A stretch of DNA of 64,000 nucleotides from an uncultured virus (IMG/VR IMGVR_UViG_3300034815_000029) (Duplodnaviria > Heunggongvirae > Uroviricota > Caudoviricetes), in the IMG/VR virus record IMGVR_UViG_3300034815_000029. One strand, written 5' to 3'. The position numbers and the translations under genes are program-made. Below, piece by piece: positions 1 through 35,487 of the stretch; within the stretch, counting starts at the first letter, position 1; the number at the start of each line of letters is the position of its first letter. Below the pieces are notes generated by a model that was not told where the DNA came from, did not search any database, and worked only from the letters and a program-made list of their open reading frames with translations.

Positions 1-127
1 GAGCTATGTGCGGAGCATGACCGAATGGCTCATGCCCTGATGACGCTGCTCGGGGAAACCGAGGACAGCGACTACATGAGTGCGGCAGAACAGCGGGCGA
101 TGGCGCGGGATGCGCTGCCGCCTAACG
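1..127 (+). repeat. 127-bp exact direct repeat, copy 1 (3' part of cassette F)
   Basis: Identical to 35880-36006; diverges right after GCCTAACG. Confidence 0.97.
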
Positions 128-178
128 CTCTCAATGAGGGGCCGCCGAAGGCGGTCCCTCTCGATTGAGTGGTTGGCC
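120..178 (-). repeat. attC site 1 (59 bp)
   Basis: Minus strand reads GGCCAAC CACTC AAT[C]GAG[A]GGG[A]CCGCC TTCG GCGGCCCCTCATT GAGAGC GTTAGGC: R''/L''/L'/R' boxes with the canonical extrahelical bases. Confidence 0.9.
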
Positions 179-199
179 GGCAACGGAAAGGACGATGAC

Positions 200-691
200 A
201 TGAACGAACTGCAATACAACCGCTGGAAACAGATGAGCCTCGGCCTGGCGCGTACCTACACGAACCTGACGCCAGCGCGGAAGGCGAGGCTGCTCGACGA
301 GGTTGAGTGCTGCATCGACTGGGTAGTGTGCAACGGCCTGGAGACCGTGGCGGACTGGGACAGCGGCGTGCAGTACGGCAAGGGCTGGCGCGAGCGCTAC
401 GAGTCCGTGAGCGCACGGGTAGATACCTTCCTTTGGGACAACCGCTACAAGTTCGAGCGCGAGAACAAGCACGGCGTCGAGGTTGTGCGCGGGCGCTTCG
501 GAGACATGCTGTCAGCCTGCGTTCGCGCTGGTTTTGATGTGGCAGTGTCCCCTAGCGGAGGCGTGATCGGCTTCACGGTCGGCGACCTGCGCGACATCTT
601 CGACGGCTCGATACCGGATTGGGTGGCGTCGCACTTCGAGGACCCGGCGGCGGTGCTGGCTGCCGGCCGCGATGAGGGCGTGTGGCTTTGA
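200..691 (+). CDS. Hypothetical protein, cassette 1 (126-698)
   Basis: ATG at 200 after AAGGA; flanked by GTTGGCCG and CGGCCAAC. Confidence 0.75.
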   Translation: MNELQYNRWKQMSLGLARTYTNLTPARKARLLDEVECCIDWVVCNGLETVADWDSGVQYGKGWRERYESVSARVDTFLWDNRYKFERENKHGVEVVRGRFGDMLSACVRAGFDVAVSPSGGVIGFTVGDLRDIFDGSIPDWVASHFEDPAAVLAAGRDEGVWL

Positions 692-692
692 C

Positions 693-751
693 GGCCAACG
701 CAAAAAATGAGGGGCTTGCGCAGCAAGTCCCGCTCGATTGATGGGTTCGGC
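693..751 (-). repeat. attC site 2 (59 bp)
   Basis: GGCCAAC...AATGAGGGG...TCCCGCTCGATT...GTTCGGC imperfect palindrome. Confidence 0.9.
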
Positions 752-773
752 GGCACAGTTAAGCGGAGAGAAA

Positions 774-1040
774 ATGCGACCAACATTTACAGCAAAGAAC
801 ATGATTATTTTGGTAACAGTTCTGCCGATAAGGATAGCTGCTCTTGGTTTACTCTGGTTCATTTCTTGGATTGGCGAGTTGGCAGATGTTGCGGCAGATT
901 GGGTTAGCTACAAAATACCTGGCCTTGAATTTGTGAGAGAAACAGAGGCAGGACGGGAAGAAAGAATGAGGCGGATTGCTGGATTGAGAAAGACTTCGCA
1001 AGAGCGCATTGACGCTGAAATTGACATGATGCATCGGTGA
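774..1040 (+). CDS. Small membrane protein, cassette 2 (699-1047)
   Basis: GGAGA RBS, hydrophobic N-terminus; flanked by GTTCGGCG and CGCCGAAC. Confidence 0.7.
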   Translation: MRPTFTAKNMIILVTVLPIRIAALGLLWFISWIGELADVAADWVSYKIPGLEFVRETEAGREERMRRIAGLRKTSQERIDAEIDMMHR

Positions 1041-1047
1041 CGCCGAA

Positions 1048-1338
1048 CTTAAATTCTTTAAAGAAATGGGGCGTAGACCAGGCGCTGGTTATTCGCTCGA
1101 TAGAATAAATAATAATCTTGGTTACACCGCAGAAAATTGTAAGTGGGCAACCACCGCCGAGCAACAAAGAAATACCAGAACCACAAAGTTGACTTATGCA
1201 TCTGTTAACGCAATGAAGCTACGCAGAGAGGAAGGTGCAACATACAAACAAATTGCTGCCGAGTTTGGCGTTTCAAGAATGTGCGCCACTCACGCAATTA
1301 TCGGAAAAACATGGGCCAATCATGAAAAAACGGAATAA
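1048..1338 (+). pseudogene. N-terminally truncated HNH endonuclease with C-terminal HTH
   Basis: LKFFKEMGRRP..SLDRINNNLGY..ENCKWAT motif; the frame reaches the cassette crossover and no N-terminal half is present. Confidence 0.7.
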
Positions 1339-1801: not shown

Positions 1802-2061
1802 CCACCCTGCTCCTCTTCGCCAGCAGCTTCCTCACCGTGTTCGCGCTCGGGTTCCAGCAGCAGAACGTCAGCGGCGGACACCATACCGCCGCCTTCGTCA
1901 CCAGCTTCCTGATCGGCACCGGCCAGCTCGGCATCCTCAAACTGGTGCCAAACACCGATGACCCGATGATGGTGCTGGCCTACCTCGCTGGCGGACCCGT
2001 CGCCATCGTCGCCAGCATGATCATCCACCCGAAAACCGTGGGAAGGAAGACCGCGCCGTGA
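1798..2061 (+). CDS. Small multi-TM phage membrane protein
   Basis: ATGA coupling, three hydrophobic segments. Confidence 0.7.
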   Translation: MTTLLLFASSFLTVFALGFQQQNVSGGHHTAAFVTSFLIGTGQLGILKLVPNTDDPMMVLAYLAGGPVAIVASMIIHPKTVGRKTAP

Positions 2062-2279
2062 GCATCTTCCTGGATTCCACAGAAATGCACGACCTGACCG
2101 GCTACGTGCGCCATGCCGATCAGCGCCGGTGGCTGACAGATCGCGGCTGGACATTCGAGCAGAACGCCAACGGACGCCCGATTGTGCTGCGATCCCACGC
2201 GGAATCCAGGATGGGTGGCGACACGGGGAAACAGGCGGAAAAACGCCCTAACTTTACTGCGATCAAGAAAGCAGCCTAA
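2058..2279 (+). CDS. DUF4224-like excisionase
   Basis: FL..EM.DLTGY....Q..WL...G......NGRP pattern directly upstream of the integrase. Confidence 0.8.
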   Translation: MSIFLDSTEMHDLTGYVRHADQRRWLTDRGWTFEQNANGRPIVLRSHAESRMGGDTGKQAEKRPNFTAIKKAA

Positions 2280-2282
2280 ACT

Positions 2283-3269
2283 ATGAGCATGGGCAGAACC
2301 AGACAATCGAATTTTGCACTCCCGCAACGCATGCACAAGAAGGGCGACGTCTACTATTACGTCACCTCCGGCACGCCGCGCAAGTGGATCAGGCTATCCG
2401 CCAGCCTGGCCGAAGCCAAGATGATGTGGGCACAACTGGAGGGCGGATATTCGGATGCGACCGGGTTGTTTTCTGCCTTGTCCGCGCGATACATCACCGA
2501 ATCACTCGACGCCCTGGCGGAATCCACCCGGCGCCAGTACCGCATCCAGGCCAACGTGCTGGAATCCGTGTTCGGCAGCATGAAGCTGTCCGAAATCAAG
2601 CCTATCCACATCGCCCAATACCTCGACAACCACAAGTCAAAAACCTCGGCCAACAACGAAATGGCGCTGATGTCAGCCATGTTCGAGAAAGCGCTGCGCT
2701 GGGGATTGACGGAAGCCAACCCGGTGAAAGGCGTCAAACGCAACACCGTGGGGAAACGCGACCGCTACATCACCGACGAGGAATTCAAGGCGATCCGGGA
2801 AGCCGCGCCGGACTACATCCGCTGCACCATGGACATCGGCTACCTGACCGGCATGCGGATCTCCGACATCCTGAATGTCTTGATGCAGGACGTGACGGCG
2901 GAAGGGCTGGCCGTCCGGCAAGAAAAAACCGGAAAGCGCCAGCTATTCACCCTGACACCAGAACTTGAAGGCGCCATCGCGGCGGCCAAAGGACTGCGCC
3001 GTACCGTCCGCAGCATGTACCTGATCTGCAACCGCAAGGGCCTGCAGGTAAATTACCGCACATTCCAGGAAGCCTTCGCCAAGGTATGCGCCAAGGTCGG
3101 CATCGAGGATGTCCACTTCCACGACATCCGGGCCAAAGCCGCCACCGACGCCAAAAAACTCGGCCAGGATTACCAGAGCCTGCTCGGCCACGCGAACCGG
3201 AACATGTCGGATCGGTACGTTAAAACAAGGGAAACTGAATCTGTTACACCGCTAAAACGGAAATTGTGA
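2283..3269 (+). CDS. int: Phage tyrosine integrase
   Basis: TGMRISD, HFHDIR, LLGH and Y catalytic motifs; N-terminal arm-binding-type region. Confidence 0.92.
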   Translation: MSMGRTRQSNFALPQRMHKKGDVYYYVTSGTPRKWIRLSASLAEAKMMWAQLEGGYSDATGLFSALSARYITESLDALAESTRRQYRIQANVLESVFGSMKLSEIKPIHIAQYLDNHKSKTSANNEMALMSAMFEKALRWGLTEANPVKGVKRNTVGKRDRYITDEEFKAIREAAPDYIRCTMDIGYLTGMRISDILNVLMQDVTAEGLAVRQEKTGKRQLFTLTPELEGAIAAAKGLRRTVRSMYLICNRKGLQVNYRTFQEAFAKVCAKVGIEDVHFHDIRAKAATDAKKLGQDYQSLLGHANRNMSDRYVKTRETESVTPLKRKL

Positions 3270-3381: not shown

Positions 3382-3711
3382 ATGAAAGCCATTCACCGCG
3401 TCGCAATCGGCGGCACCCCACGGAACCCATCCCTGCAAGATCAACTTTTCGTCGGCTCGAATGTCTACGGAAAGCGCGGCGGGACGAGCGGGAATCCTGT
3501 TGACGCAGTGTGCGTTGCCACCGGAACCGCCTGCGGTCACCAAACCATCGCCAAGCTGCCAGAAGAAACCCTGCTGCGAATCACCGCCGCGATTGGCCCA
3601 ATCGATGGCCGCCGGGCTAAAAAACTGGCCGAACTCGGTCTGGAAAACGAACTTGTAGCCGAGGTGTTCATCATCAAACTCAACCAGGAGAACAGCTATG
3701 CCGGTATATAA
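3382..3711 (+). CDS. Hypothetical protein
   Basis: GGAGA RBS then ATG. Confidence 0.65.
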   Translation: MKAIHRVAIGGTPRNPSLQDQLFVGSNVYGKRGGTSGNPVDAVCVATGTACGHQTIAKLPEETLLRITAAIGPIDGRRAKKLAELGLENELVAEVFIIKLNQENSYAGI

Positions 3712-3955
3712 AATCGAAGGTGCCGTGGCCGACAAGTACCACGGCTGCGGTCAGGCGCTGGCCGCCGTTGCCGGCGGGCAGCTCGTTGACATTGTGTATT
3801 TGCGTGACGTGATCGATGAAATCGATGAAGAGGACGAGACTTCTGTCAGGCAGGCGCTAGACAGTGAGGAACTAGGCCCGACCGTGCGCTACCTGAGCGC
3901 CATCGGCGAGGTATTTGTCGGCATGTGTTCTTGCTACGAATTTGTGGTCCAGTAA
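3698..3955 (+). CDS. Hypothetical acidic protein
   Basis: AGGAG RBS, overlaps the previous ORF. Confidence 0.7.
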   Translation: MPVYKIEGAVADKYHGCGQALAAVAGGQLVDIVYLRDVIDEIDEEDETSVRQALDSEELGPTVRYLSAIGEVFVGMCSCYEFVVQ

Positions 3956-4182
3956 TGGCGAACCATCCCAACCGAAGCCGGTCAGGAAACTCATCCAGAA
4001 ACCCGGCGCCTGACGAAATCCGTGCCCACAGGGAAAGCGCCGGGCTATCCCAAACCGCAGCCGGTGAACTAGTGCATACCACCTGCAGAACCTGGCAACA
4101 GTGGGAAGCCGGAGACCGCAGAATGCATCCCGCGTTTTGGGAGCTATTCAGAATAAAATCATTACAGCCATCTACAAAATAG
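3955..4182 (+). CDS. XRE/Cro-like HTH protein
   Basis: IRAHRESAGLSQTAAGELV...WQQWEAGDRRM. Confidence 0.85.
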   Translation: MANHPNRSRSGNSSRNPAPDEIRAHRESAGLSQTAAGELVHTTCRTWQQWEAGDRRMHPAFWELFRIKSLQPSTK

Positions 4183-6346: not shown

Positions 6347-6735
6347 TTGTTCCCGTCATCCATGAAAGTGGCCTGCCCGAAATTTGGGCCATCCATGCCA
6401 GCGGCAGAGCTTTCGTCGGTCTGAAAGCGGAGCAGAACCGCCAGCCTGCCGTTGCCCTTCCAGCCCGCCCCGCACTGAAAATATTTTTTAGTGAATGGCC
6501 GGATCTGAATCCCGATCCAGAAAGGCAGCCGCAACTGGAGGAATAAAACCCCGTTCATGAACAGGCTAGGGGGATCGCGGTAAATGACGCGCAGCAGATT
6601 AAAGCCGGGATAGATTAAATCGAAGAATCCGCATTGCAGGCTGATCAGGTGTACCGATCGCGCCTCCGGGATGGCGGTATGGTCGCCTAGCCAGTCGATT
6701 AATTTCCAGATTGGCGAACTTGCAAAGGGTCGCAT
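6343..6735 (-). CDS. Conserved hypothetical protein (homolog of 61368-61763)
   Basis: Shares WLGD.TAIPE, IYRDPPSLFMNG and ESSAAGMDGPN with the phage B copy. Confidence 0.85.
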   Translation of the reverse strand: MRPFASSPIWKLIDWLGDHTAIPEARSVHLISLQCGFFDLIYPGFNLLRVIYRDPPSLFMNGVLFLQLRLPFWIGIQIRPFTKKYFQCGAGWKGNGRLAVLLRFQTDESSAAGMDGPNFGQATFMDDGNK

Positions 6736-7595
6736 TACTGATCACCAAATACACTAAAACTGATTTGTGAAAAATCAGCGGCGACTACAGAGGAATTGTA
6801 CGTTTCAAGCCGGAATGTGCTGGCTGTCAATACCGTTGTCACACACGCAAAATAATTCCCACCAGGAATTACCGCATAGTTGGCAGATGACATTGCAGGG
6901 TTCAATGTGATTGTATATACACCTGGTCCACCATCGGTGATGGTTGCGCTTACACCAGACGAAATATCAAACGCAGGAGTGCCCGTACCGTTAAATCTTC
7001 CAAATGCCTTTGCAACCCCGGGATTGTGCTTTACCCCGCTCGGGGTGACGATGACAGCGGAGCTCGTTGCAGCCTCCATGTCGGCCTGAGATGCAAAGGC
7101 CATGGATTTCCCCACAGAAAAAAACGCCGTACCGTTGCAGATCAATATCCCGCTGTCGCCCGGCGCAACCGCCAGCGTCGCGGCGCCGTCTACCAGCTCG
7201 GTGGAATTCGGGTCGATGGTGATGGTGCCGCTGCCGGTGTTGCGGTAGAACACATGCCAGCCGTCGCCCAAAGTCGCGGCGGCGGTGAGGCCAAGCGGCC
7301 AGGTTCCGCTGCAATCGAGCAGTTTCGAGCGGTCTCCGGCGACCGCAGTATAGGCGCCAGTCTTGCTGGAGGTGGCAAATTTGAGTCGCAGCAGGTCGTT
7401 GTTTCCTGCTCCGGCCACGGTTTCGATTTCCACGCCGCCGCCGGTATCGAGCAGCGCCAGCGTGCCGAGTGCGGCCTTGAGCGCGTTGACCATGTCCACC
7501 ACGCCGGCCAGGTCGGTGAGCAGCGCCTGCTTGGGGTCGTCGGTGCTGGCGTCGCAGTTCGCTTTGGTGGCGTCAGCCGGGAGTGTCGTGCTCAT
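6735..7595 (-). CDS. Tail fibre protein
   Basis: Follows the J-like gene; ITIDPNSTELVDGA and ASQADMEAATS..VTP fibre motifs. Confidence 0.75.
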   Translation of the reverse strand: MSTTLPADATKANCDASTDDPKQALLTDLAGVVDMVNALKAALGTLALLDTGGGVEIETVAGAGNNDLLRLKFATSSKTGAYTAVAGDRSKLLDCSGTWPLGLTAAATLGDGWHVFYRNTGSGTITIDPNSTELVDGAATLAVAPGDSGILICNGTAFFSVGKSMAFASQADMEAATSSAVIVTPSGVKHNPGVAKAFGRFNGTGTPAFDISSGVSATITDGGPGVYTITLNPAMSSANYAVIPGGNYFACVTTVLTASTFRLETYNSSVVAADFSQISFSVFGDQ

Positions 7596-15521: not shown

Positions 15522-15814
15522 CAGGCTTTTTCCAGGAGCAGGCGGGTGAAGCCGTTGCCGTCCGGCTTGATCGCGGCGACGGTGTAGTTCACGGCGTTGA
15601 TGGTGATGGCGCTGCCTTCCACCAGGCTGGCCACGTCCGCGCTGGCGCAGGTGAATTCCGGCGCGCTGCCGGACACCATCCCGCCCGGGAATTCCGCATA
15701 GGCGTCGCCCAGCAGGCCGACGGCGCTGCCGCCGCTGAAAGTGGCGGTGTAATTGCCCAGCAGCGCCAGCGTGGCGGCGTTAAGCGTGGGCAGGATGTTG
15801 GCGAAAGCGGTCAT
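15521..15814 (-). CDS. Head-tail joining protein (FII-like)
   Basis: YTVAAIKPDGNGFTRLLL. Confidence 0.75.
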   Translation of the reverse strand: MTAFANILPTLNAATLALLGNYTATFSGGSAVGLLGDAYAEFPGGMVSGSAPEFTCASADVASLVEGSAITINAVNYTVAAIKPDGNGFTRLLLEKA

Positions 15815-15821
15815 GCAGACA

Positions 15822-15869
15822 GCATGGCTGCTGCGCGTCAACTACTTGGGCCGGATGGGTTGCGTTTTT
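15822..15869 (-). promoter_or_regulatory. Putative activator-dependent late promoter, copy 1
   Basis: 36-bp repeat (15834-15869 = 22697-22732) followed by CATGCT-N6-ATG. Confidence 0.65.
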
Positions 15870-22126: not shown

Positions 22127-22677
22127 CAGCCGAACCTCACCAGCACGCGACGCACGTCGGTGCCTTTTTGCGCCGCCGCCTCGCGCCGGACTTCAGTCAG
22201 CAGCCGGGAGCGCAGCGCCATCAGCGTGGCGGGGTTGTATTCCATGCTGCGATCGGCCAGCGCGGCCTTGACGATGTCGAGCTGCGAGGCCGTGGCCTTG
22301 GAGGTCAGCGCGGCCTCCACCGCATCCAGCATGGTGCGGGCGAAGCTGCGCGCGTCATAGACGGCGTCGGTCTCGAAGTTGTGCAGCACCCTGAGCCGGC
22401 CGGCATCCACCTGGACCCGCTCGCTCGCCGATTCCGCCAGCGCCACCCAGTCGTAGTCGCCGACCGTGTAGGCGGACGTGGTCGCCATGGCCACGGAAAC
22501 GGCATGGTTCACGCCGTCGGCGGCGGCGGCAATGGCAAATTTGGCGGTGGCGTTGCGGAAGTAATACGTCAGCACCCAGGTCGGGGCCGGGTAGTCAGCC
22601 AGATCCTCGCGGCGCCATTTCCAGGTGTCGCCAGCGCGCGCGGAGGTCGGTTCGGTAGTCGGGACGGTTGCGGTCAT
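22126..22677 (-). CDS. Head completion/joining protein
   Basis: AGDTWKW...; between terminase and portal. Confidence 0.65.
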   Translation of the reverse strand: MTATVPTTEPTSARAGDTWKWRREDLADYPAPTWVLTYYFRNATAKFAIAAAADGVNHAVSVAMATTSAYTVGDYDWVALAESASERVQVDAGRLRVLHNFETDAVYDARSFARTMLDAVEAALTSKATASQLDIVKAALADRSMEYNPATLMALRSRLLTEVRREAAAQKGTDVRRVLVRFG

Positions 22678-22684
22678 GTCGAAA

Positions 22685-22732
22685 GCATGGCCTCACCGCG
22701 TCAACTACTTGGGCCGGATGGGTTGCGTTTTT
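22685..22732 (-). promoter_or_regulatory. Putative activator-dependent late promoter, copy 2
   Basis: Same 36-bp element plus CATGCT-N6-ATG. Confidence 0.65.
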
Positions 22733-22761
22733 AGCAACTCCGGAATAGGGGCTATTTTAAG

Positions 22762-23517
22762 TTAGCCGTCAAAGCATCCGCACGGTATTTCGACCGCGCC
22801 CCTAAACATATCCATCTGTGCATCGTCGTACCTCACTAGGTCGGCCCACGCATACGAGCGGCCAAGACCTTTCACGCTGGTTAGTTTCGCGCCTGCTTCC
22901 ATCGCCAGCGCCCGCTGAATCAAATCCGGGTGCTGGCGCTTCAGTTCCAAAATCTCATGCGGCTTGCTGCTCGGGCAAAAGAAGCAGGCGCTTTTCCCCG
23001 GTTGCGGCAGTCCTGCGCGCCGGATCGCTTCCACACATTCATCGCGTCCCCAATCCCACTCAATCAACGGGTAGCGCGTTTCCTCGTACTTCGCTCGGTG
23101 CGCCTCGCCTGCATCAATGCCGACCCAAAACCACGGCGCGGCTATTCCCTGCGCTTTGAGCCACCGCTTCTGCGGCCTGATCTTGTAGTGGTCGCTGCAA
23201 CTCTTAAAGCCATACGCAATTCCAGGCAGTGCGCCGCGTGTAAGGCAGTCGGCTTCAAGGCTTACCGCTTCCGCTACAGTTACGATCCGAGGAAAACCAA
23301 CCCCTTCGCACCAATCGCTTACCGCGTCCTTGTGGCGGTAGGTTTCCGGCCTCTCGCCTCCGGTATCAGCGAACAAAATCAAGTCAGGTCGCTCGCCGCG
23401 TTCGTGCATGCCTATCAGCATGGCCGTGCTGTTCGTACCAGCTCCGTAGCTCACCACAATAGTCGGCGCTGGCAGTACGGCGGCGTTACTCTCAGTTTCT
23501 TGCAAGTTGTTCTCCAA
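22762..23517 (-). CDS. PAPS-reductase-like (PP-loop, Cys-rich) protein, solitary cassette K (22762-23575)
   Basis: SYGAGTNS, FADTGGE, KSACFFCP, CGCFDG; stop codon inside the GTTAGCC core; start codon uncertain. Confidence 0.8.
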   Translation of the reverse strand: MENNLQETESNAAVLPAPTIVVSYGAGTNSTAMLIGMHERGERPDLILFADTGGERPETYRHKDAVSDWCEGVGFPRIVTVAEAVSLEADCLTRGALPGIAYGFKSCSDHYKIRPQKRWLKAQGIAAPWFWVGIDAGEAHRAKYEETRYPLIEWDWGRDECVEAIRRAGLPQPGKSACFFCPSSKPHEILELKRQHPDLIQRALAMEAGAKLTSVKGLGRSYAWADLVRYDDAQMDMFRGAVEIPCGCFDG

Positions 23518-23521
23518 TGCC

Positions 23522-23581
23522 GGCTAACAAGTCATTCCACCGGACGGCCTTCGGCCGCGCGGTGAATTCCGAGCGTTATCG
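23522..23581 (+). repeat. attC site K (60 bp)
   Basis: GGCTAAC AAGTC ATT[C]CACCG...CGGTGAAT TCCGAGC GTTATCG; R'' complements GTTAGCCG at 22761. Confidence 0.88.
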
Positions 23582-23843: not shown

Positions 23844-25829
23844 CTACCTCCTCCTCACGATGCCGCGCGGGCCGGGTTTTTGTTTTACTGCTGGCGGTGG
23901 TGGAGGGATATTTGTTACATCGAACAGGTCGCCGACCACAGGCTGGAAACGGGTCTCCAGATCGCTCCAGTATTTCGCGCTTTTTTTCGATAATTCAAAA
24001 TAGGTCTCCAGCCACACGGCGTAAACGGTGCAGTCCCAGGCTTCGACACGCTTCCTGATCGCCGTCCAGGTGGACTCCTCACCGCGCACGGTGCGGCGGG
24101 TGGTGCGGGCTTCGCCGGTGAATTGCCTGAAGAATTCGTCGCTGAGTTCGTTGCTGAAATGCATGTACCCGGGACCGGGACGGGTGATTTGCAGGCGCCC
24201 GTAGATCAGGTCTTTGGCGTGGTTGGTGCCGACCCACCACAGCACCAGTCCGTTTTTGCGCAGCCTGCCCTTCCAGTCGATGTCCACTTTGCTGGCGCCG
24301 TCGCGGATGTGTTTTTCACGCCCGGACCGTCCGCCAATGGCGAACACTTTGCGGCGGCTGTGCTTGGCGCAGAAATTGTAAACGGCGTGGGTGTTGTGGC
24401 CGCGAGTATCGATGGCCGTGCCGGATATGCGCAGGCGCTGTCCGCTGGCATGGTTGAATTCTGTCTCGAAGATGAATTCTTCCAGGTCTTGCCAGACTTC
24501 GTCCTCGTCCGGGTTGCCGAAGAAGATGCGGTGGGCGATGGCCCATTTCTCGCAGCCGCGCCCGTATCCCCATACGACGCACTCCAGACGGTTGGGCTGG
24601 GTGTCTACCCCGGCCAGCAACAGCACGGCTCCCATCGGGACGCGCTCCAGCGGGTAGGGTTCGGCGCGGGCGCGGAGTTCGTTTTCGTCCGACTTCTCGA
24701 AGGCTTCTGCCCAGTATTCGCCGAGGGTGGTGTTCCAGAATGCCTGGAGTTTTTCTTTCTTGCCCTCTCCGCCTTCGCGGTAGGCGGCGATAAAGTCGCG
24801 GGCAATGCTCACCCAGGAGACGTTCGGGCTGTAGGCGCTCCAGGTGTGGAAGGCGATGCGCGCCGGAGGGCGGACAAATTGTCCGGTGGCGTCCCTGAAT
24901 ATCCCGGAAGTGTCGCAGGTGGTGCCATCTTCGGACTGGTAGTGGCCCTGGTCGCAAATGGCCAGGTATTGTGCCTGCTCGATCAGCGCACCGCAGTGCG
25001 GGCACAGATGGCGGACCGTCTCCGGGTTGTCGTCTGTCCACTTGAATCCATGGGGCTCGTCCTTGCCGCCCCAGGTTAGCGGATGAAACTCGCCGCATTC
25101 CGGGCAGGGGATGTGCGGCTGCATGAACAGGTCCGCATCGCGCTCGCGCTTTTCGATGTTGGAGAAGCCCTTGAGCTTCGGTGTGCTGCCGATCACCAGC
25201 TTGGGGAAGGTGGCGCCCTCGATGCGCTTTGCCGCGAGCGTTCCGGGGTCTCCCTCCTTTTCGATGTTGCTGTCGAAGGCGTCGTATTCGTCCAGGTAGC
25301 CCGTATCGGCGCTGATGCGGCGGTAATTCTTGGCCGCCTTGCCGCCCTTCAGGTGGGCCATCGATCCGAGGAACTTCTTGGCCTGGAGCGTGTTGTCCTT
25401 GTCGCGCTTGAGGTAGGCAGGGAAAACGCCCTCCATCACCGCTACGTCGCGCAGCATAGGGTCGAGTTCGGTCTTGACAAACTCGTCGCGGTCGTCGTCG
25501 GTAGGCTGCCAAAGGACCTGATTCCGGCGCTTATGCTGGGCAAAGTAACCCATTGCCGCCAGAATGATCTTGGTATATCCGACCCGCGCTGATTTTCTCC
25601 AGATCACCTCGCGGATGTCGTCGTTGCTGATGCAGGCCATGATGGCGCGCTGGAACCACCAGGGCGTCCAGGACTGCTCGACGTAGGATGACTCAGCCGA
25701 TAGATAAAAATGCTTGCACGCCCACTCGTCCAGGCTCATCGGTTCAGGCACACCGAAAGCGGATAGCCCTTTCGCCAGGTGCAGCTGCATGGCAGGCAGA
25801 ATGAATCGGCTGTGCTCGCTCAGGTCCAT
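23844..25829 (-). CDS. Terminase large subunit, lambda gpA family
   Basis: KSARVGYTK Walker A, LDEYD, CPECGE, AGVDTQ. Confidence 0.95.
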   Translation of the reverse strand: MDLSEHSRFILPAMQLHLAKGLSAFGVPEPMSLDEWACKHFYLSAESSYVEQSWTPWWFQRAIMACISNDDIREVIWRKSARVGYTKIILAAMGYFAQHKRRNQVLWQPTDDDRDEFVKTELDPMLRDVAVMEGVFPAYLKRDKDNTLQAKKFLGSMAHLKGGKAAKNYRRISADTGYLDEYDAFDSNIEKEGDPGTLAAKRIEGATFPKLVIGSTPKLKGFSNIEKRERDADLFMQPHIPCPECGEFHPLTWGGKDEPHGFKWTDDNPETVRHLCPHCGALIEQAQYLAICDQGHYQSEDGTTCDTSGIFRDATGQFVRPPARIAFHTWSAYSPNVSWVSIARDFIAAYREGGEGKKEKLQAFWNTTLGEYWAEAFEKSDENELRARAEPYPLERVPMGAVLLLAGVDTQPNRLECVVWGYGRGCEKWAIAHRIFFGNPDEDEVWQDLEEFIFETEFNHASGQRLRISGTAIDTRGHNTHAVYNFCAKHSRRKVFAIGGRSGREKHIRDGASKVDIDWKGRLRKNGLVLWWVGTNHAKDLIYGRLQITRPGPGYMHFSNELSDEFFRQFTGEARTTRRTVRGEESTWTAIRKRVEAWDCTVYAVWLETYFELSKKSAKYWSDLETRFQPVVGDLFDVTNIPPPPPAVKQKPGPRGIVRRR

Positions 25830-27948: not shown

Positions 27949-29371
27949 CGCTGGCCTCCTGATACGGCCTGCCCGCCGAAGCGGTCCTACCGCGCATCTT
28001 CTCCATGCGCGCCAATTTCGACGGAACAGGGGCGCTTCTGTGCCGGTCGTCGAAACGGGTATACTCACCAGCAAAGGTCACATGCACCGTCCCCGTTGGG
28101 CCATTGCGTTGCTTGCCGATGATGATTTCGGCAATCCCCTTGTCCGGGCTGTCCTCGTTGTAAACTTCGTCGCGGTAGATGAACAAAACAATGTCCGCGT
28201 CCTGCTCGATGCTGCCGGAGTCGCGCAAATCGGAAAGAATCGGCCGCTTGTTGGGGCGGGATTCCAGGCCGCGATTGAGCTGAGCCAACGCGATCACCGG
28301 AATGTGCAGCTCCTTCGCCAGCAGCTTCAGCGCGCGGGAAATTTCCGCCATTTCATAGGCGCGGTTGTCCGACTTGCCGGAGCCTTCCATCAGTCCGATA
28401 TAGTCGATCACCACCATATGCAGCCCGCCGCACTCACGGTGCAGCCGCCGCGCCCGAGCGCGCAGCTCGTTGGCCGTCAAGGAGCCTTCCTCGTCCAGAA
28501 ACAGGTGGGTCTCGCGCAGATCACTGGAGGCTTTGTAGAGCTTGGCGAATTCGGCCTCATTCAGGCGCCCGATCTTCACCCGCTGCTGGTTCAGGCGCGC
28601 CACCGAAGCCAGCAGGCGCACGCCCAGTTGATTGTTGGCCATCTCCAGGGAGAAGAAAGCCACGTTCTTGCCGCTCTTCAGCGCCACGTGTTCCGCGATA
28701 TTCAGGGACAACGCCGTCTTGCCCATCGCCGGCCGCGCCGCCACGATGATCAGCTCGCCCGCCTGAAACCCCGTCGTCATCCGGTCCAGTTCCTCGAACC
28801 CCGTCGCCAGCCCGGTCACATCCGTCCGGTTCGGGTTGCCGGAAAGGTCATCGATCTGGCGCAACACATCATCCAGCACCGAACCCACATGCTGCGGACC
28901 CTCCGAACCATTGGCAGCCGACTCGCTCACCGCCATCACCTTGCTTTGCACAAAGTCGAGCAGATCCTTCGCACTGCGCCCGGCCCGGTTGGAAATCGCC
29001 TCCGCCCCCTCGCCCAAAGCCCTGCCCAGCGAACGGATCACCGAACGCTCGCGCACAATCTCCGCATAGCGCTTGATATTCGCCGCGCTCGGCGTGTTCT
29101 GCATCAGCCCGGCCAGAGAGGACAGCCCGCCCACATTCTCCAGCTCGTGGTGCGTTTCAAGGAACTCCGAAACCGTGATTACGTCGGCGGTCTTTCCGGC
29201 CTCCAGCAGGCGCGTGAAGGCCCGGTAAATCTTGCGGTTTTCGATAGCGTAGAAATCGCTCTCGCTGACCACATCCGCGATCTTGTCCCAGGCATTGTTG
29301 TCCAGAAAAAGACCTCCAAGAACAGAGTGTTCGGCATCCAGGCTGAATGAAGCATCCTGCTCATTCGCCAT
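27932..29371 (-). CDS. dnaB: Replicative DNA helicase
   Basis: AARPAMGKT, FSLEM, VIDYI, LRDSGSIEQDAD, KQRNGPTG. Confidence 0.97.
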   Translation of the reverse strand: MANEQDASFSLDAEHSVLGGLFLDNNAWDKIADVVSESDFYAIENRKIYRAFTRLLEAGKTADVITVSEFLETHHELENVGGLSSLAGLMQNTPSAANIKRYAEIVRERSVIRSLGRALGEGAEAISNRAGRSAKDLLDFVQSKVMAVSESAANGSEGPQHVGSVLDDVLRQIDDLSGNPNRTDVTGLATGFEELDRMTTGFQAGELIIVAARPAMGKTALSLNIAEHVALKSGKNVAFFSLEMANNQLGVRLLASVARLNQQRVKIGRLNEAEFAKLYKASSDLRETHLFLDEEGSLTANELRARARRLHRECGGLHMVVIDYIGLMEGSGKSDNRAYEMAEISRALKLLAKELHIPVIALAQLNRGLESRPNKRPILSDLRDSGSIEQDADIVLFIYRDEVYNEDSPDKGIAEIIIGKQRNGPTGTVHVTFAGEYTRFDDRHRSAPVPSKLARMEKMRGRTASAGRPYQEASGGVDM

Positions 29372-29561
29372 TGCGCGACCTCGCATCCTGCTGCTTCTGC
29401 CAGTCGTCCCTGCACTCCGGGCCGCAGAACTGTTCCTCGACGGGGGAGTGGCACCAGTGGCAGGCGCCGATTGACGGCAGGGAATGAATCGACCGGGCGG
29501 CTTTCAAGGCGCGATCCCGGTCGGCTTCCTCGCGGTCACTTGCTCGGTCGGCTTCGTCCAT
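29361..29561 (-). CDS. TraR/DksA-like C4 zinc-finger protein
   Basis: MDEADRA...CHWC...FCGPEC. Confidence 0.7.
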   Translation of the reverse strand: MDEADRASDREEADRDRALKAARSIHSLPSIGACHWCHSPVEEQFCGPECRDDWQKQQDARSRNGE

Positions 29562-29699
29562 GGTCTCTCCCCAGGTTGAGCAATGCCAGAAGGCGTTCGC
29601 ACACGGTATGCGCCGCCTGTTTCTTGTTGAGCTCGACGGGTATCCGCTTGGCCAGTGAGTTGGCCTTGCTGAATACGAAGGTCTCTTGTGCGCGGATGC

Positions 29700-30080
29700 T
29701 CACGCCATCCCCTTGCCCACTGCCTTGATCAGCGCCAGCACGTCCGGCAGCTGCTTCGCCAGTTCAGCCAGAGCGCGGCGCTGCTTCACATCCTCATCTG
29801 TCAGGTATTTCTCGACCAGGTAATAGATCGGGGTCATATCCCCGGTTGCGGCGATGAACTTCTCCAGATCCTCGACCGTAAACCGGCGGTGGTCTTCCGG
29901 ATTCCCGGATAGCTTCCGGGACAGCTCGGACTGGCTCAAGTCCATGTCCGCTGCGATGGTCTTGAGCGGGTTGCGATGCGTATAGGTCGCGGCCCTGACG
30001 CAATCCAGAATGGTCGCGTGGCGCTCGGAAAGTCCGGGCGTGAAATCAAGGGTAAGCTGGCTATTGGAAACTGTTGTCAT
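29700..30080 (-). CDS. CII-like regulator
   Basis: HTH (IAADMDLSQSELSRKL), downstream of cro. Confidence 0.65.
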   Translation of the reverse strand: MTTVSNSQLTLDFTPGLSERHATILDCVRAATYTHRNPLKTIAADMDLSQSELSRKLSGNPEDHRRFTVEDLEKFIAATGDMTPIYYLVEKYLTDEDVKQRRALAELAKQLPDVLALIKAVGKGMA

Positions 30081-30137
30081 GATTCTTTCCCTTACTTTCC
30101 TATAGGAAATCTGGCGAAAAAAAGAAGATAGCCTCAG

Positions 30138-30407
30138 TCATGCCGCAGCCCGTTGATTTGGGTTTTCGCCAAAAACATCCGAGCGCAGGTCATAGCGGGT
30201 TACTTGTCCGCCAGTCGCGTCCTCGATAGCACGGCAGTGCTCTGCGGGCGGCATTGGAGTCTTGGTGGTGTTCAGCCAGTTCCAGACGTGGCCCTGGGCA
30301 ACGCGCACTTCGCGCCCATTCGCCTGGTGCCATTCACGGATGGCGGTCGCCAATGCGACTTGACCTCCGACGAGTTCGATTGCTTTTTGGAGTGGGGTAA
30401 TCATCAT
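30138..30407 (-). CDS. Cro/YdaS-like regulator
   Basis: GGQVALA...AIEDATGGQVTRYDLRSDVFG. Confidence 0.85.
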   Translation of the reverse strand: MMITPLQKAIELVGGQVALATAIREWHQANGREVRVAQGHVWNWLNTTKTPMPPAEHCRAIEDATGGQVTRYDLRSDVFGENPNQRAAA

Positions 30408-30409
30408 GG

Positions 30410-30492
30410 AAACAAATTACCATCATCGTAGTAACGATGTCAACCATCATTGTTGTTTTACACAATACAAGCACGGTTGTATTGTTCAATCC
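30410..30492. promoter_or_regulatory. Divergent cro/cI operator region
   Basis: ACCATCATCGT and ACCATCATTGT near-palindromes; related ACAATCATCGT at ~31898. Confidence 0.6.
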
Positions 30493-30843
30493 ATGAATCT
30501 TGCAGAGCGGATACAGACAGCCAGAAAGCATGCCGCCCTTACACAGGGAGGATTAGCCGAAAAAGCGGGGATTTCTCAGCAGGCCATATCTCGCCTTGAA
30601 ACTGGCGAACAAAAAACCACCACCGATATTGTGCAGATCGCCGTTGCCTGCGGAGTCCGTCCTGAGTGGCTGGCAATGGAATCTGGCGATATGGTGGATG
30701 GGTTGTACGTGCATGACGAAAAGCTCAAGCAGTTGCTCAAAATCGCTCAGGAGTTGCCAGAGTACGGAAAAGACAAGGCGATACGGGAAGTTACTGAGAT
30801 TGTTGAATTCATCGAACAGGCAGCCAAGGCGGCGAAGCAATAA
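30493..30843 (+). CDS. CI-like XRE repressor without peptidase domain
   Basis: LAERIQTARK..LTQ.LAEKAGISQQAISRLE. Confidence 0.85.
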   Translation: MNLAERIQTARKHAALTQGGLAEKAGISQQAISRLETGEQKTTTDIVQIAVACGVRPEWLAMESGDMVDGLYVHDEKLKQLLKIAQELPEYGKDKAIREVTEIVEFIEQAAKAAKQ

Positions 30844-30945
30844 CGTGATCCAGCTTCAAATACAGCTCGCCTTTTGCTTCGACAAGGACACTTATGGCGC
30901 TTAAAAAGCGCGGAAGGCAGTAAACCGAAACGGAGGAATATCGTA

Positions 30946-31458
30946 ATGCGTAAAATTTGTTTCGTTATTTTATGTGCCATTTTAGGCGGCTGCGTTGCTC
31001 CTCAAAAGATAAGCATTTCATCACCGTTCGATCCCGTTCTAACGAAGAAATTGCTTGCGGATGGGATAAACACTATTCAGGGAAGCGCCCTTATCAGGCA
31101 AAGAGGGGGTGGCGTCGTCACCTGCGCAGGACAGGAGGTAACACTTACCCCTGCAACAGCTTACTCATCCGAAAGGGTAAAGGCGCTCTTTGGGTCATCG
31201 CTGGGCGGCTATGCCCCCGCTTTTGGTGGGCGACGAGTCGAATTTGAAAGTACAGCACCAGAATATTGGTCATCCTCAAGATCGACAATATGTGACGCTC
31301 AAGGTAATTTCAGGTTCGATAAAATGGCCGATGGATCATTTTATGTAAATACTCAAATCACCTGGAACGTCAGCCCTTACGCGACGGAAGGGGGAAGCAT
31401 AACCCGTTTAATCACATTATCCGGCGGGGAAACTAAGAATATCGTGCTTACCCCTTGA
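30946..31458 (+). CDS. Lipoprotein (moron)
   Basis: ILGGC lipobox; GGAGG RBS. Confidence 0.8.
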   Translation: MRKICFVILCAILGGCVAPQKISISSPFDPVLTKKLLADGINTIQGSALIRQRGGGVVTCAGQEVTLTPATAYSSERVKALFGSSLGGYAPAFGGRRVEFESTAPEYWSSSRSTICDAQGNFRFDKMADGSFYVNTQITWNVSPYATEGGSITRLITLSGGETKNIVLTP

Positions 31459-31539
31459 TGCTGAAATTGCCCACCAACCCCAGCAACATGCAATGGCAGA
31501 CCACCGCAGAGGCCAGGGCCAAGGATAAATGGGAATAAT

Positions 31540-31779
31540 ATGAGCGCTCATGACTATACGGTCGAGTTTGACTATCTGACTGGCGGGGCTATTTCGGCGA
31601 CTGCAACCCCGGACGGCAGCCTGGTTGCGATTGATTTTGTCCTGCTTCATGACCCATCAATGGCAGTCCGCCTCGCTGTCCCCGCAGAGAAATTAGAAAG
31701 TCTGACCAACGCTTTACTTCAGATTCAGAAGGCCCTGGACGATCCGGAAAGCGGAATACATATTCGCCCTTCGCATTAA
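31540..31779 (+). CDS. Hypothetical protein
   Basis: ORF followed by a terminator. Confidence 0.55.
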   Translation: MSAHDYTVEFDYLTGGAISATATPDGSLVAIDFVLLHDPSMAVRLAVPAEKLESLTNALLQIQKALDDPESGIHIRPSH

Positions 31780-31809
31780 TCTTCATATCTAGCATTTCAC
31801 TCTCCCCAT

Positions 31810-31834
31810 AACCCGCTTCGGCGGGTTTTTTGTT
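31810..31834 (+). terminator. Intrinsic terminator
   Basis: ACCCGC-TTCG-GCGGGT followed by a T run. Confidence 0.85.
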
Positions 31835-31885
31835 GCCCGCGATTTGCGGGTTTTTTCATTGTAGCAAATAAAACAATGATAATGG

Positions 31886-31915
31886 TTGACACATAAACAA
31901 TCATCGTTGTATATT
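31886..31915 (+). promoter_or_regulatory. PL-like early promoter upstream of the cassette array
   Basis: TTGACA-18 bp-TATATT with an operator-like motif in the spacer. Confidence 0.7.
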
Positions 31916-32135
31916 GAACCCCATCGCACCATGAACACCGCCCCTACCGGCAATGACCAGCACCAAGGCACGGCCCACGGGTAGACAGCGCGACAGGCCG
32001 CAGGGCGGGCAGCACAGAACTGAAGAACCCGGTAGGCCGGGCGGTAGCTGGACCGTAACAGCCGACTCGGGGGTCCGAAAAATCCCGCCCTGGCCAGGGA
32101 AAACGGCACCAGACAACCCATAACAGGAGAAAACC

Positions 32136-32522
32136 ATGAGCCTGCTACAAAAAACCCTCGACAGCATCGAAGCCGAAGCCGACAAGAAAAGCGCCATCGC
32201 CGTGGCTCACGCCGGGACCATCCATGAACTGGAAACGCTCACCGGAATCCTGAGCGGACTGGGAGCCGGAGAACTCCGGCCCGTCGTGACTTTTCATGAA
32301 CGCACAGAAGACATCCACTCCGCGATGGCGATCGATGTCCGCATCCTGGTGTTCCAGGATCAAGCCGCCACGCTCCGGGCGGTGGATAAATCGGGGCGTA
32401 GCCATACGCTGGAGATCGGCAAAGGCTATGACGGCAGACCCGAAACTACCGTGCGCTTCGAGGGACTGTCCAGCTACATCACGATAATCGACTACGTGCA
32501 CGCAATGGAACAGGCGGCCTGA
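32136..32522 (+). CDS. Early hypothetical protein
   Basis: AGGAG RBS. Confidence 0.7.
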   Translation: MSLLQKTLDSIEAEADKKSAIAVAHAGTIHELETLTGILSGLGAGELRPVVTFHERTEDIHSAMAIDVRILVFQDQAATLRAVDKSGRSHTLEIGKGYDGRPETTVRFEGLSSYITIIDYVHAMEQAA

Positions 32523-32720
32523 ATGCAGACCCTGATCGGCATCCTCGTCCAGCCCTACGAAGAACAGCGCATCAGCCTGCTGATCGAGGGTATGCAGGCG
32601 CAGAAGCACTGGCTGAGTGTGGATGATTGCCTATACGAGATTCTAAACAACGGAATCATCACCTCCGAGGCGCTTTACCGCGCATCGATTAAAAATATGG
32701 AGAACGACCATGCCTATTGA
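32523..32720 (+). CDS. Early hypothetical protein
   Basis: Abuts the previous ORF. Confidence 0.6.
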   Translation: MQTLIGILVQPYEEQRISLLIEGMQAQKHWLSVDDCLYEILNNGIITSEALYRASIKNMENDHAY

Positions 32721-32901
32721 CCAAGTCATCCCGCTCGGCACCGAAACCCGCCCTGAAATCGCGGCCCGCATGGCGCAGGCGCGCGGACTCATGCTGCTGG
32801 TAAAGCAAGCCACCGGACAGATGATCCTGTGCAGCCGCAAACTTCCCGGCTGGCAGCGCTGGATTGTCGCCATTCACACCTACTCACCGGAGGCCGCATG
32901 A
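32710..32901 (+). CDS. Early hypothetical protein
   Basis: GGAG RBS, coupled. Confidence 0.6.
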   Translation: MPIDQVIPLGTETRPEIAARMAQARGLMLLVKQATGQMILCSRKLPGWQRWIVAIHTYSPEAA

Positions 32902-33125
32902 AGCTCATCATCACCGGATTGATTGTTCTCGCCGTCGCTGCCGCCCTGATCGTCAAGAATGCCGATGCGATCGATAGCTATCAGCTCCACAACGACGGCG
33001 TCACCGCCTGCAAACCGCCGCGCAACGAAGCCGAGAAGCTCGTCGCTACGCTCTACAAAAGCGCCGATGGCGGGCCGCTTACGCTGCATTGCGCCTACCA
33101 CGCCACTGTGAGCTTTGCGCTATGA
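32898..33125 (+). CDS. Early protein with signal/TM segment
   Basis: GGAGG RBS, ATGA overlap. Confidence 0.6.
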   Translation: MKLIITGLIVLAVAAALIVKNADAIDSYQLHNDGVTACKPPRNEAEKLVATLYKSADGGPLTLHCAYHATVSFAL

Positions 33126-33346
33126 GCGTAACCCGCTTCCAGATGCTGACACAGGCACAGCGCAACTTGGACATGGCCGACCTGCTGGCAGCCAATGGAG
33201 ACTATGACGGCGCAGCCAGGAACACGGCCGCAGCCAGAGCACTGATTTTCACCGAGAGCACCAACCCGCCCAGCCGGAGCGTGGCGGCAAGCCCGAATAA
33301 CACCGGCAGCTGCAGCGCTGGCCGAGAAAGCCTCCTTACAGCGTGA
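33122..33346 (+). CDS. Early hypothetical protein
   Basis: ATGA overlap. Confidence 0.55.
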   Translation: MSVTRFQMLTQAQRNLDMADLLAANGDYDGAARNTAAARALIFTESTNPPSRSVAASPNNTGSCSAGRESLLTA

Positions 33347-33383
33347 TGCAACCGGCCGCCGGGAGCCGTAATCCCGGCACTTA

Positions 33384-33461
33384 TTTGAACGTAGAGCTAA
33401 CCGGCGGCGCTTTAGCGCCGTCCAGCGACCGAAGGGAGCGAGGTTGAGCGCCTTGTTAGGG
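33384..33461 (-). repeat. attC A (78 bp)
   Basis: Minus strand CCCTAAC AAGGC GCT[C]AACC...GGTTAGC TCTAC GTTCAAA. Confidence 0.88.
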
Positions 33462-33474
33462 GCCAACTGCACGG

Positions 33475-34173
33475 ATGATTGAACTGCTACACACCGACTG
33501 CATGACTTACATGGCGGCGCTGCCAGATGCGGCCTTTGACTTGGCGATTGTTGACCCGCCATACGGGCGCGGCGAGGACGGCGGCACAAACCGATGCCAC
33601 GGCGTGAAGCAGAAGAACGGCGCGGTGCTGCGGTGCCTCGATGGCGGCTACGCGAAGAAGGCTTGGGACAAGGAACCGCCACCGCCTGAGTATTTCGCGG
33701 AACTGCGCAGGGTGGCAAAGCACCAGATTGTTTGGGGTGCGAACTACATGCCGGTGAAACTGCAAGGCGGGGCAATTGTTTGGGACAAGGTGAATGACGG
33801 AGCCGACCAGAGCGGCGCGGAAATAGCCTACTGCAGCTTGAACGAGCGCGTGGACGTGGTGCGCTATATGTGGCGCGGGATGATGCAGGGAGAGGCGGTA
33901 GGCAGCCAACGCCAGCAGGGAAACAAGGCGCTGAACGAGCGCCGGATTCACCCGACACAGAAGCCGGTTAAGTTGTACGAATGGTTGCTGCAGCAGTACG
34001 CGCAGCCGGGAATGAAGGTTTTAGATACCCACCTTGGCAGCGGGAGCGCGGCGATTGCAGCGCACTACTACGGGGTGGATTTTGTGGGGTGCGAGATAGA
34101 TGCCGACTACTGGCTAGCAGCCAAGGAACGGTTTGAGGCTGAAACCCGGCAGATGGCGTTACTTGGCCCCTAA
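33475..34173 (+). CDS. N4C/N6A DNA methyltransferase, cassette A
   Basis: DPPY, HPTQKP, LDTHLGSGS. Confidence 0.9.
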   Translation: MIELLHTDCMTYMAALPDAAFDLAIVDPPYGRGEDGGTNRCHGVKQKNGAVLRCLDGGYAKKAWDKEPPPPEYFAELRRVAKHQIVWGANYMPVKLQGGAIVWDKVNDGADQSGAEIAYCSLNERVDVVRYMWRGMMQGEAVGSQRQQGNKALNERRIHPTQKPVKLYEWLLQQYAQPGMKVLDTHLGSGSAAIAAHYYGVDFVGCEIDADYWLAAKERFEAETRQMALLGP

Positions 34174-34229
34174 CGCATAGGTAAGGGGACTGAGCAACGC
34201 GAAGTTCCCGCTTGACCGCTGAGTTAGGC
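34168..34229 (-). repeat. attC B (62 bp)
   Basis: CCCTAAC...GGTAAGGGGA...TCCCGCTTGACC...GTTAGGC. Confidence 0.9.
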
Positions 34230-34253
34230 GGAATTTTGAAAAAGGAGATGGTC

Positions 34254-34427
34254 GTGGCAAAACTAATAACGTTGAACATTGAGCGATTTGTGGTTTGCAG
34301 CACTGGCGAGGAAATGGAAATACCAGAACCGGCAGACAGTCTTGAAGCCGCGATAAAACTTCGAGACGATAAGCAGGCTGGTGATGAATATGAGACATGG
34401 GAAATTGTGGCGGAAGTTGCCGCCTAA
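34254..34427 (+). CDS. Hypothetical protein, cassette B
   Basis: AAGGAG RBS; stop codon in GCCTAAC. Confidence 0.65.
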   Translation: MAKLITLNIERFVVCSTGEEMEIPEPADSLEAAIKLRDDKQAGDEYETWEIVAEVAA

Positions 34428-34512
34428 CGGCGAAGCTAAGGGGCGCGAGCGATGACAAAACAACGAAGTGAGCCGGATGTTCGAGCGTCACGCCTTGAGC
34501 GCCTTGTTGGGC
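34422..34512 (-). repeat. attC C (91 bp)
   Basis: GCCTAAC...GCTAAGG...CCTTGAGC...GTTGGGC. Confidence 0.82.
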
Positions 34513-34676
34513 GATTGTGGGCATTAGTCTGGAGGCGATGGATGACTGGCCCAGGTGGGCAACCTCGCCGTGTGGTGCGCGTGAAGGGGTGGCGCACTGC
34601 GATTATTGAGAGCGATTGGGAAATGCGGCAGACCATTACGCCATGTTTCTCGATTTTTGGATGGCGGTTTGATTGA
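34452..34676 (+). CDS. Hypothetical protein, cassette C (starts inside the attC loop)
   Basis: ATG at 34452 lies within attC C. Confidence 0.55.
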   Translation: MTKQRSEPDVRASRLERLVGRLWALVWRRWMTGPGGQPRRVVRVKGWRTAIIESDWEMRQTITPCFSIFGWRFD

Positions 34677-34680
34677 TGAC

Positions 34681-34747: not shown

Positions 34748-34775
34748 GGCTGGTAGCTACGAAGTGAGGAATTAA

Positions 34776-35483: not shown

Positions 35484-35487
35484 AGAC

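Follow-up and report, generated by a model that had tools for sequence, protein, structure and literature searches.

The window analysed here, a stretch of 64,000 nt, is most likely a chimera of a complete circular phage (phage A) and part of a second phage (phage B). The two probably came to lie in one contig through an assembly-graph walk, which would have gone once round the phage A circle, met a repeat for the second time and then left it by the other out-edge into phage B; the point of passage is an integron-type cassette common to both phages (cassette F), and the place at which they part would be an IntI-type recombination joint. Both phages carry CALINs with cassettes for DNA methyltransferases, a Lar-like protein and small ORFs, and F precedes two different next cassettes, the contexts parting after the AA/C of an attC site, then one G, then divergence (slashes mark cuts or joints). 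The cassettes would have passed between A and B when an IntI provided in trans, from a related prophage or the host, recombined attC with attC on folded bottom strands. IntI presumably made this A/B junction, and the adjacency of A-in, F and B-out would not belong to one molecule.

Comparison of the window with itself gives 127/127 identical bases between 1-127 and 35880-36006, with a first mismatch of C at 128 against T at 36007, and no other exact long direct repeat within the 64,000 nt. The repeated stretch is the 3' part of ORF F and ends in ...GCCTAACG; beyond it copy 1 enters a hairpin element of 59 nt and copy 2 a different one of 94 nt (Table 1). The predicted cut of the attC behind F lies at 36004/36005 (125/126 in copy 1), and the identity extends 2 nt past it, over a C that is invariant and a G present in 15 of 17 aligned sites, so that the copies part at the first position able to vary. 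The left limit of the repeat looks like an assembly artefact: k=127 is the top k of SPAdes and is used in JGI pipelines, a walk through a k=127 graph should leave just such a 127-base repeat from base 1 onward, and copy 1 probably marks the contig start at such a graph node. De Bruijn k-mer overlap repeats are likewise exact and start from base 1; unlike circular contigs that end in a k-base repeat, however, the second copy here lies inside the contig, not at its end. The right limit has a biological origin, as a recombination joint at the attC cut.

Thirteen public runs hold part of 33000-39000, ten of them sediment metagenomes of 2020, and the Logan contigs (k=31, not reads) of four runs, X1-X4, were placed on 28000-44000; these are perhaps from one campaign, with X1 perhaps the source sample, and so are not independent. 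Natural breaks at 36006, 34688 and 33388/9 all lie ≤2 nt from an attC crossover. In X1, a contig ends at 34688, 2 nt beyond the cut 34686/34687 of site 34681-34747, where depth goes from 64.7 to 48.3, and a loose end has ...GAGGCCC joined to AAC at 33388, the cut being at 33389/33390. The initial annotation had described the identity of the two copies and their divergence directly after it, which is borne out in full, and its predicted recombination point, the cut GCCTAA/CG, does coincide with the branch, 2 nt past the AA/C of the attC sites. That cut implies that the + strand is the attC bottom strand, in agreement with the strand matches of the covariance model given below, and the two array contexts proposed for F were recovered as two right-hand neighbours in the sample, one in phage A and one in phage B.

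Table 1. Features of the window and of the related prophage piece L030 (rows marked L030 use the coordinates of that piece).
Feature	Position	Strand	Remark
Repeat copy 1	1-127	+	3' part of ORF F, R box GCCTAAC (120-126) and one extra G
Repeat copy 2	35880-36006	+	within complete cassette F
Cassette F	35737-36004	+	attC E6 and ORF F; bounded by two AA/C crossovers
ORF F	35805-36047	+	80 codons, no stop ahead of crossover
Phage A	128-36006		circle of 35,879 bp; complete lambdoid temperate siphovirus gene set
Phage A xis/int	2058-3269		
Phage A TerL	23844-25829	-	TerS also present
Phage A repressor region	30138-30843		
Phage A array, part 1	33384-36006	+	continues over circle junction into 1-1053
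Phage A attC	33384-33461	+	
Phage A attC	34168-34229	+	
Phage A attC	34422-34512	+	
Phage A attC	34681-34747	+	
Phage A attC	35488-35556	+	
Phage A attC E6	35731-35790	+	
Phage A cassettes, N6/N4 methyltransferases	33475-34173, 34776-35483	+	
Phage A cassettes, small ORFs	34248-34427, 34452-34676, 35509-35736	+	
Phage A array, part 2	1-1053	+	ends GCCGAAC/TTAAA (1042-1053)
attC E7' ('attC 1' of the initial annotation)	120-178	+	neighbour of F in phage A; 52.9 bits
Phage A attC	693-751	+	
Phage A cassette ORFs	200-691, 774-1040	+	
Lone phage A cassette	22756-23581	-	attC 23522-23581 (-), 32.5 bits, outside training set
PAPS-reductase-like ORF of lone cassette	22762-23517	-	ends GGCTAAC/TTAAA
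Phage B, part	36007-64000		distant Bcep22-like, plasmid-type
Phage B array, visible part	35999-38292	+	ends GCCTAAC/TTAAA (38281-38292)
attC E7 ('attC G' of the initial annotation)	35999-36092	+	neighbour of F in phage B; 46.7 bits
Phage B attC sites	36337-36401, 37420-37504, 37859-37924	+	
Phage B cassette, Lar-like	36044-36349	+	
Phage B cassette, C5 methyltransferase	36428-37432	+	
Phage B cassette ORFs	37526-37864, 37936-38286	+	
Phage B ParA	38652-39395		
Phage B TrfA-like initiator	40618-41496		
Phage B single ORF of 4626 aa	42023-55903	-	
Phage B internal virion protein	58832-61030	-	35-36% identity to cultured relatives
L030 IntI	2102-3121	-	480.8 bits (cut-off 265); between holin-like and excisionase-like genes
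L030 attC (R1)	1754-1825, 3604-3666, 3900-3966	intI strand	flank IntI

In the early regions of the + strand a hairpin element lies behind nearly every small ORF. An alignment of 17 such elements, 12 from the window and 5 from the metagenome contigs L005 and L006, which carry relatives of F, has AAC and GTT invariant in 17/17, and the flanking positions of the RYYYAAC and GTTRRRY boxes pair in 10-12 of the 17. The stem has 22 pairs, with 69.9% of cells paired versus 61.3% after shuffling and 27-47% with slid partners; double-sided changes number 49 against 24.9 expected, 15 pairs show compensatory changes, and the covariation score of the alignment was reached by none of 500 shuffles. Two simpler searches were rejected. 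A strict RYYYAAC...GTTRRRY regular expression returned 1 site only and was replaced by the curated alignment and a covariance model, and an energy-based scan for AAC...GTT hairpins, with 18 matches mostly in coding GC-rich DNA, was unspecific and was dropped.

The covariance model, R1, was trained on the 17 phage elements alone, with no known attC among them. No IntI above cut-off was found in the control genomes, and real attC controls were therefore taken from class 1 integron plasmids, namely R100 (NC_002134) and three more class 1 arrays. The only R1 match below E = 0.01 in the 50 kb of R100 is the aadA1 attC (46.2 bits), the opposite strand of the same site (16.3 bits) being the only other match listed; in the three further arrays R1 detects the sites of aadA2, a HAD-hydrolase cassette, aac(6')-IIa and cmlA1, and misses those of blaIMP-1, dfrA14 and estX. 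Altogether, 5 of 8 known attC sites are found with E from 4e-5 to 6.5e-11, and nothing elsewhere in ~89 kb of plasmid DNA. There is no R1 match in Bcep22, DC1 and a Ralstonia prophage (166 kb together) and none in 11 of 12 loci of TerL relatives, and an attC-subtype motif has 0 matches in the collection genome_contigs. The bottom strand of the aadA1 attC aligns arm for arm with L005:1407-1466 and has the same extrahelical layout as the phage elements, which carry an extra G/T on the 3' arm of the + strand and a T-G-A that is invariant or nearly so. No T-run follows the hairpins, and ORF F and the Lar-like and C5 methyltransferase genes read into them, so that they do not have the form of intrinsic terminators. 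Since a model built from the phage elements finds known attC sites and nothing else in the plasmid DNA, the elements are, by sequence and predicted fold, attC sites, and it is natural variation that speaks for their cutting by IntI.

The polarity of the sites relative to their genes is reversed. R1 matches the 5 detected real attC sites, all 5, on the strand opposite their genes (the bottom strand), and matches 13/13 window sites, the 12 training sites and 23522-23581 (-), on the coding strand; the arm facing AAC carries the unpaired extra bases. In the attC bottom strand, as characterised in PMC5027507, RYYYAAC lies in R', the cut falls between A and C, and the extrahelical bases are on the other arm. 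The strand matches and the extrahelical arm thus place the cut of the window's + strand at the 5' end of each hairpin, and the predicted mobile unit would so consist of C, attC, the downstream ORF and RYYYAA, with phage genes on the recombining strand. ORF starts with a Shine-Dalgarno sequence lie inside attC loops at 34452, 35509 and 36044, the last being the ATG of the Lar-like gene in the loop of E7, and five ORFs, ending at 34173, 34427, 35736, 37864 and 38286, stop on the TAA of YTAA/C. These starts and stops fit inverted polarity, as does the attC downstream of F: canonical polarity would give the two copies a common one, and they differ there. At none of the 13 sites is a top-strand ORF followed by its own attC.

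Class 1 arrays have top-strand genes, each with its own attC behind, that are read from Pc away from intI; the phage cassettes have bottom-strand genes, each with its attC ahead, that are predicted to be read from phage early promoters. The RYYYAAC and GTTRRRY boxes, the imperfect hairpin and the unpaired bases on one arm are common to both, as comparison with the aadA1 attC of R100 (NC_002134) indicates.

ORF F reads through the breakpoint and acquires two different 13-residue tails, the one in the phage A context ending at TGA 166-168, inside attC 120-178. Comparison of ORF F with Pfam, PHROG and NCBIfam returned no family, and its matches in a protein atlas are just unnamed small phage protein clusters. 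Relatives of protein F are absent from viral_contigs apart from the window's own record, and number three in metagenome_contigs. In those of L005 (79%) and L006 (64%), homology stops at residue 67, the AAC codon, and a new attC follows. The F-like cassette of L006 lies three cassettes behind a C5 methyltransferase and F of phage B two ahead of one, so cassette order differs between relatives.

The window holds 13 attC sites, 8 in the phage A array, a lone ninth in A and 4 in B. Both arrays are CALINs: no intI lies nearby, and sites of a single orientation (+) are packed close together, 8 within 3.2 kb of circular A and 4 within 1.9 kb of B. The lone attC, sited between terL and the head-tail joining gene, immediately precedes a PAPS-reductase-like gene and forms with it a single cassette inserted in the structural module of phage A. 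All three attC arrays end in AAC/TTAAA without a following hairpin, at 1046-1053 (+), 38285-38292 (+) and 22756-22763 (-). The window has 4 occurrences of AACTTAAA where 0.47 are expected, 4 being reached in 0 of 100 shuffles, and 3 of these occurrences are at array ends. The prophage piece L030 has CCCAAC/TCAAATTC ~85 nt before the start of its intI, and the AAC/TTAAA array end may represent an insertion site, secondary or attI-like, that the arrays have in common.

None of the 81 window ORFs scanned is an IntI, and the window thus has no complete integron; the integrase of phage A scores 30 bits against the IntI profile (cut-off 265) and is without the IntI insertion. A possible source is found among relatives. 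L030 (G002:C31, 1-19698), on a Rhodocyclaceae MAG contig, is a prophage piece whose TerL is 65% identical to that of phage A, and which contains an intI flanked by attC sites (Table 1). Four more R1 sites follow its terL on the coding strand, at a place equivalent to that of the lone phage A cassette, with ORFs that include a MazG-like gene and phrog_1017. L030 contains a complete integron within the prophage of a phage A relative, and its cassette ORFs appear to be read towards intI, unlike those of class 1. In the MAG that contains the 85% TerL relative, a second candidate host, an IntI of 454.3 bits is encoded on the chromosome, next to a carbamoyltransferase gene and a single R1 site; the placement of phage contigs in MAG bins is uncertain. 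Both intI and prophages are induced by the SOS response.

An alternative, which we consider unlikely, is that the hairpins are mere conserved boundary or linker sequences (terminators, processing sites) and that ordinary mosaicism, through homologous or illegitimate recombination and then selection for intact genes, without IntI, produced the joint. Temperate phages often have mosaic joints at gene ends, and this reading would sit well with a window that has no IntI. Two groups of joints off the crossovers would also suit it. In X1 a contig breaks at 35739 and the extra depth on F, by arithmetic from contig depths, is ~74; A/B sharing may start at 35710; with the E6 crossover still 27 nt ahead, such a start would not agree with a cleanly delimited cassette. 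Loose ends at 33419, with at least 2 different upstream sequences, occur in 4/4 runs, and this position, in the loop of the first attC, does not fit a cut at AA/C; depth is raised over 33340-33873, to 86 in X1 and to 21.9 versus ~5 in X3. Against ordinary mosaicism, the elements detect real attC sites and do so with a strand preference, they have no T-run, and ORFs read through the hairpins and start inside them. ORF F, moreover, is not kept intact at the joint and has two different tails, the copies break apart at the first base after AA/C that varies, and a related prophage has IntI beside such sites. PeSL cassettes of T4-type phages and the 'boundary sequences' of lambdoid phages are short joints that shuffle small early genes and are thought to act via homologous recombination between repeats. 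The phage elements resemble them as short conserved elements between small early genes, and differ in being attC sites with a defined integrase cut.

The preferred reading, a graph walk from A into B, requires two phages, and the gene content on the two sides of 36006 agrees with this. Phage A has, besides the genes in Table 1, genes for lysis, tail, tape measure, a fused protease/capsid and portal, and for O-like and DnaB-like replication proteins. Its TerL is closest to those of Ralstonia prophages (~52% identity), and in genome contigs the relatives are betaproteobacterial, from Alcaligenaceae and Rhodocyclaceae, with one MAG contig at 85%. G001, an independent viral record of 20,189 bp, matches 11642-31830 with 100% identity; its completeness rating of 51% fits a phage A genome of ~36-40 kb. 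The closest cultured relatives of the phage B internal virion protein are those of the Burkholderia phages CSP3, DC1, BcepIL02, JC1 and Bcep22 (35-36%), with genomes of 61-64 kb; phage B also has the Lar-like protein, the C5 methyltransferase, tail-fibre genes and a second spanin. Bcep22-type phages have a virion protein of a size similar to that of the 4626-aa ORF. Megablast of 30001-42000 against a phage collection gave no match.

Contig depth changes exactly where the repeat ends. In X1 it is 48-86 over 28000-35475 and 68.7 over 35476-36009, and after 36010 it is 13.8-21.5 in 15/15 bins, a drop of about threefold at 36006/7. In X4 it is ~9-14 over the phage A part and 0-3.5 over the B part, 9/15 bins of which are at zero, and X2 and X3 have the same step. 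The phage A circle closes in all four runs. Record 26 of X4 (7128 nt) spans 33419-36006 and extends 4540 nt more, a loose end of X3 past 36006 equals window 128-157 letter for letter, and in X1, X2 and X4 a contig exits 36006 and later matches window 748-777. The initial annotation had cautioned that the contig might consist of phage A as a circle, joined at a graph branch to phage B, and had proposed to compare coverage on either side of 36006; the comparison gives a contig depth of ~49-69 that falls to ~16 exactly at 36006/7 in X1, and the caution is upheld by this step, the circle-closing contigs and the completeness of G001. An apparent joint from 36006 to 36377, which skips 370, was rejected as a deletion: it is a 21-nt match arising from the likeness of phage A site 693-751 to phage B site 36337-36401, and the contigs that show this spurious joint follow the phage A path.

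The edge from F to B-out is real at the k-mer level, and record 12 of X2 (35977-36344, depth 5.9) begins 30 nt ahead of the branch. As a branch would lead one to expect, none of the contigs of runs X1-X4 spans F into B-out by more than 30 nt on each side, and the exact 40- and 43-base junction stretches have 0 matches in viral_contigs. As evidence from contigs of perhaps one campaign, these data give the chimeric join good, not decisive, support. The A:B depth ratio is roughly 3:1 in every run where B is detectable, which leaves room for a physical or host link between the phages. A cointegrate, with A inserted in a phage or plasmid B by homologous or IntI recombination at F so that F flanks A, would account for this ratio, for the presence of F in both A and B and for the contig order F (part), A, F, B-out. 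It is nonetheless quite improbable, as the threefold depth difference at the junction allows at most a minority of A copies to be inserted, a single X4 contig closes the A circle, the repeat is exactly 127 nt from base 1 as the graph walk predicts, and the bridging contigs into B-out are lacking. That the sequence past 36006 is an alternative arm of phage A is barely credible: the initial annotation had left 'polymorphic in the population' open and the phage A early region does have several variant joints, but 36007-64000 has its own replication/partition genes, second spanin and tail-fibre genes, with podovirus-type virion genes whose relatives are in Bcep22-like phages of 61-64 kb, and phage A is complete within 35.9 kb.

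Clusters of attC sites in phages are already published. As described in Qi et al. 2023 (PMC9892861), phage CALINs are attC arrays with one ORF between sites, found in temperate and virulent phages, and they carry methyltransferase cassettes, have no IntI in cis and include sites proven with IntI1. The arrays of the window resemble those described there in their single-ORF structure, methyltransferase cassettes and lack of IntI in cis, and differ from them in that every cassette ORF here is on the attC bottom strand and that an identical cassette, its identity broken at the crossover, is present in two unrelated phages of the same sediment community; the phages here are, in addition, uncultured and known from sequence alone, whereas that report has IntI1-proven sites. 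Among the passages of PMC9892861 that contain orientation terms, none concerns ORF orientation relative to attC polarity. The same report describes a complete integron inside a Shewanella prophage, and L030 is like it, so far as described, in having an IntI, an attI-side junction and attC cassettes in a lambdoid prophage. L030 differs in being a relative (65% TerL) of the window phage and not that phage itself, in its second attC array after terL and in an IntI co-oriented with the cassette ORFs. Neither reversed gene polarity nor phage-to-phage cassette sharing was found in the attC literature searched, which offers a thin basis, and both appear to be new.

The practical consequence is that a probable two-phage chimera is flagged at a shared cassette, and viral databases based on k=127 may contain more of this kind. 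One cassette in two phages, parting at the integrase cut, also provides natural, population-level support for the use of attC sites in phages and turns their published presence into a testable route of phage-to-phage gene flow. Reversed polarity at 13/13 sites and in relatives, together with a prophage IntI, suggests a phage-adapted form of integron, one that would serve anti-restriction genes. Anti-phage cassettes are reported in bacterial integrons (bioRxiv 10.1101/2024.07.02.601686), and the anti-restriction cassettes of phages would mirror those described there. Tentatively, and with slightly less than even confidence, a wider picture can be drawn, in which a betaproteobacterial temperate phage lineage and an unrelated phage-plasmid of a shared host community use integron recombination to shuffle accessory genes, with reversed polarity, reading from early promoters towards intI in those that have it, an integrase in some members, traded anti-restriction cassettes and insertion at secondary sites of the AAC/TTAAA type.

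Some further features of the two phages were noted. Upstream of the phage B parA, 38560-38700 contains several short TTGC-rich direct repeats (TTGCCAGCTTGCT/GGCTTGC variants), which have the look of partition or iteron sites and, next to the ParA and TrfA-like genes, suggest plasmid-like maintenance of phage B. Phages A and B have 73% nucleotide identity at 6353-6592 / 61378-61617 and 6979-7094 / 62001-62116, in parts of two neighbouring minus-strand genes beside the tail-fibre genes, an identity that fits a common host. Phage A has a 63-nt direct repeat of 89% identity between structural genes (15807-15869 / 22670-22732), which is not an attC and of which both copies are also present in G001. 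Finally, an X2 contig (depth 11.9) links 29704 to 32523, omitting or replacing a 2.8-kb immunity region; since this join skips the cII-like gene, the repressor pair and two ORFs, it represents a variant of phage A.
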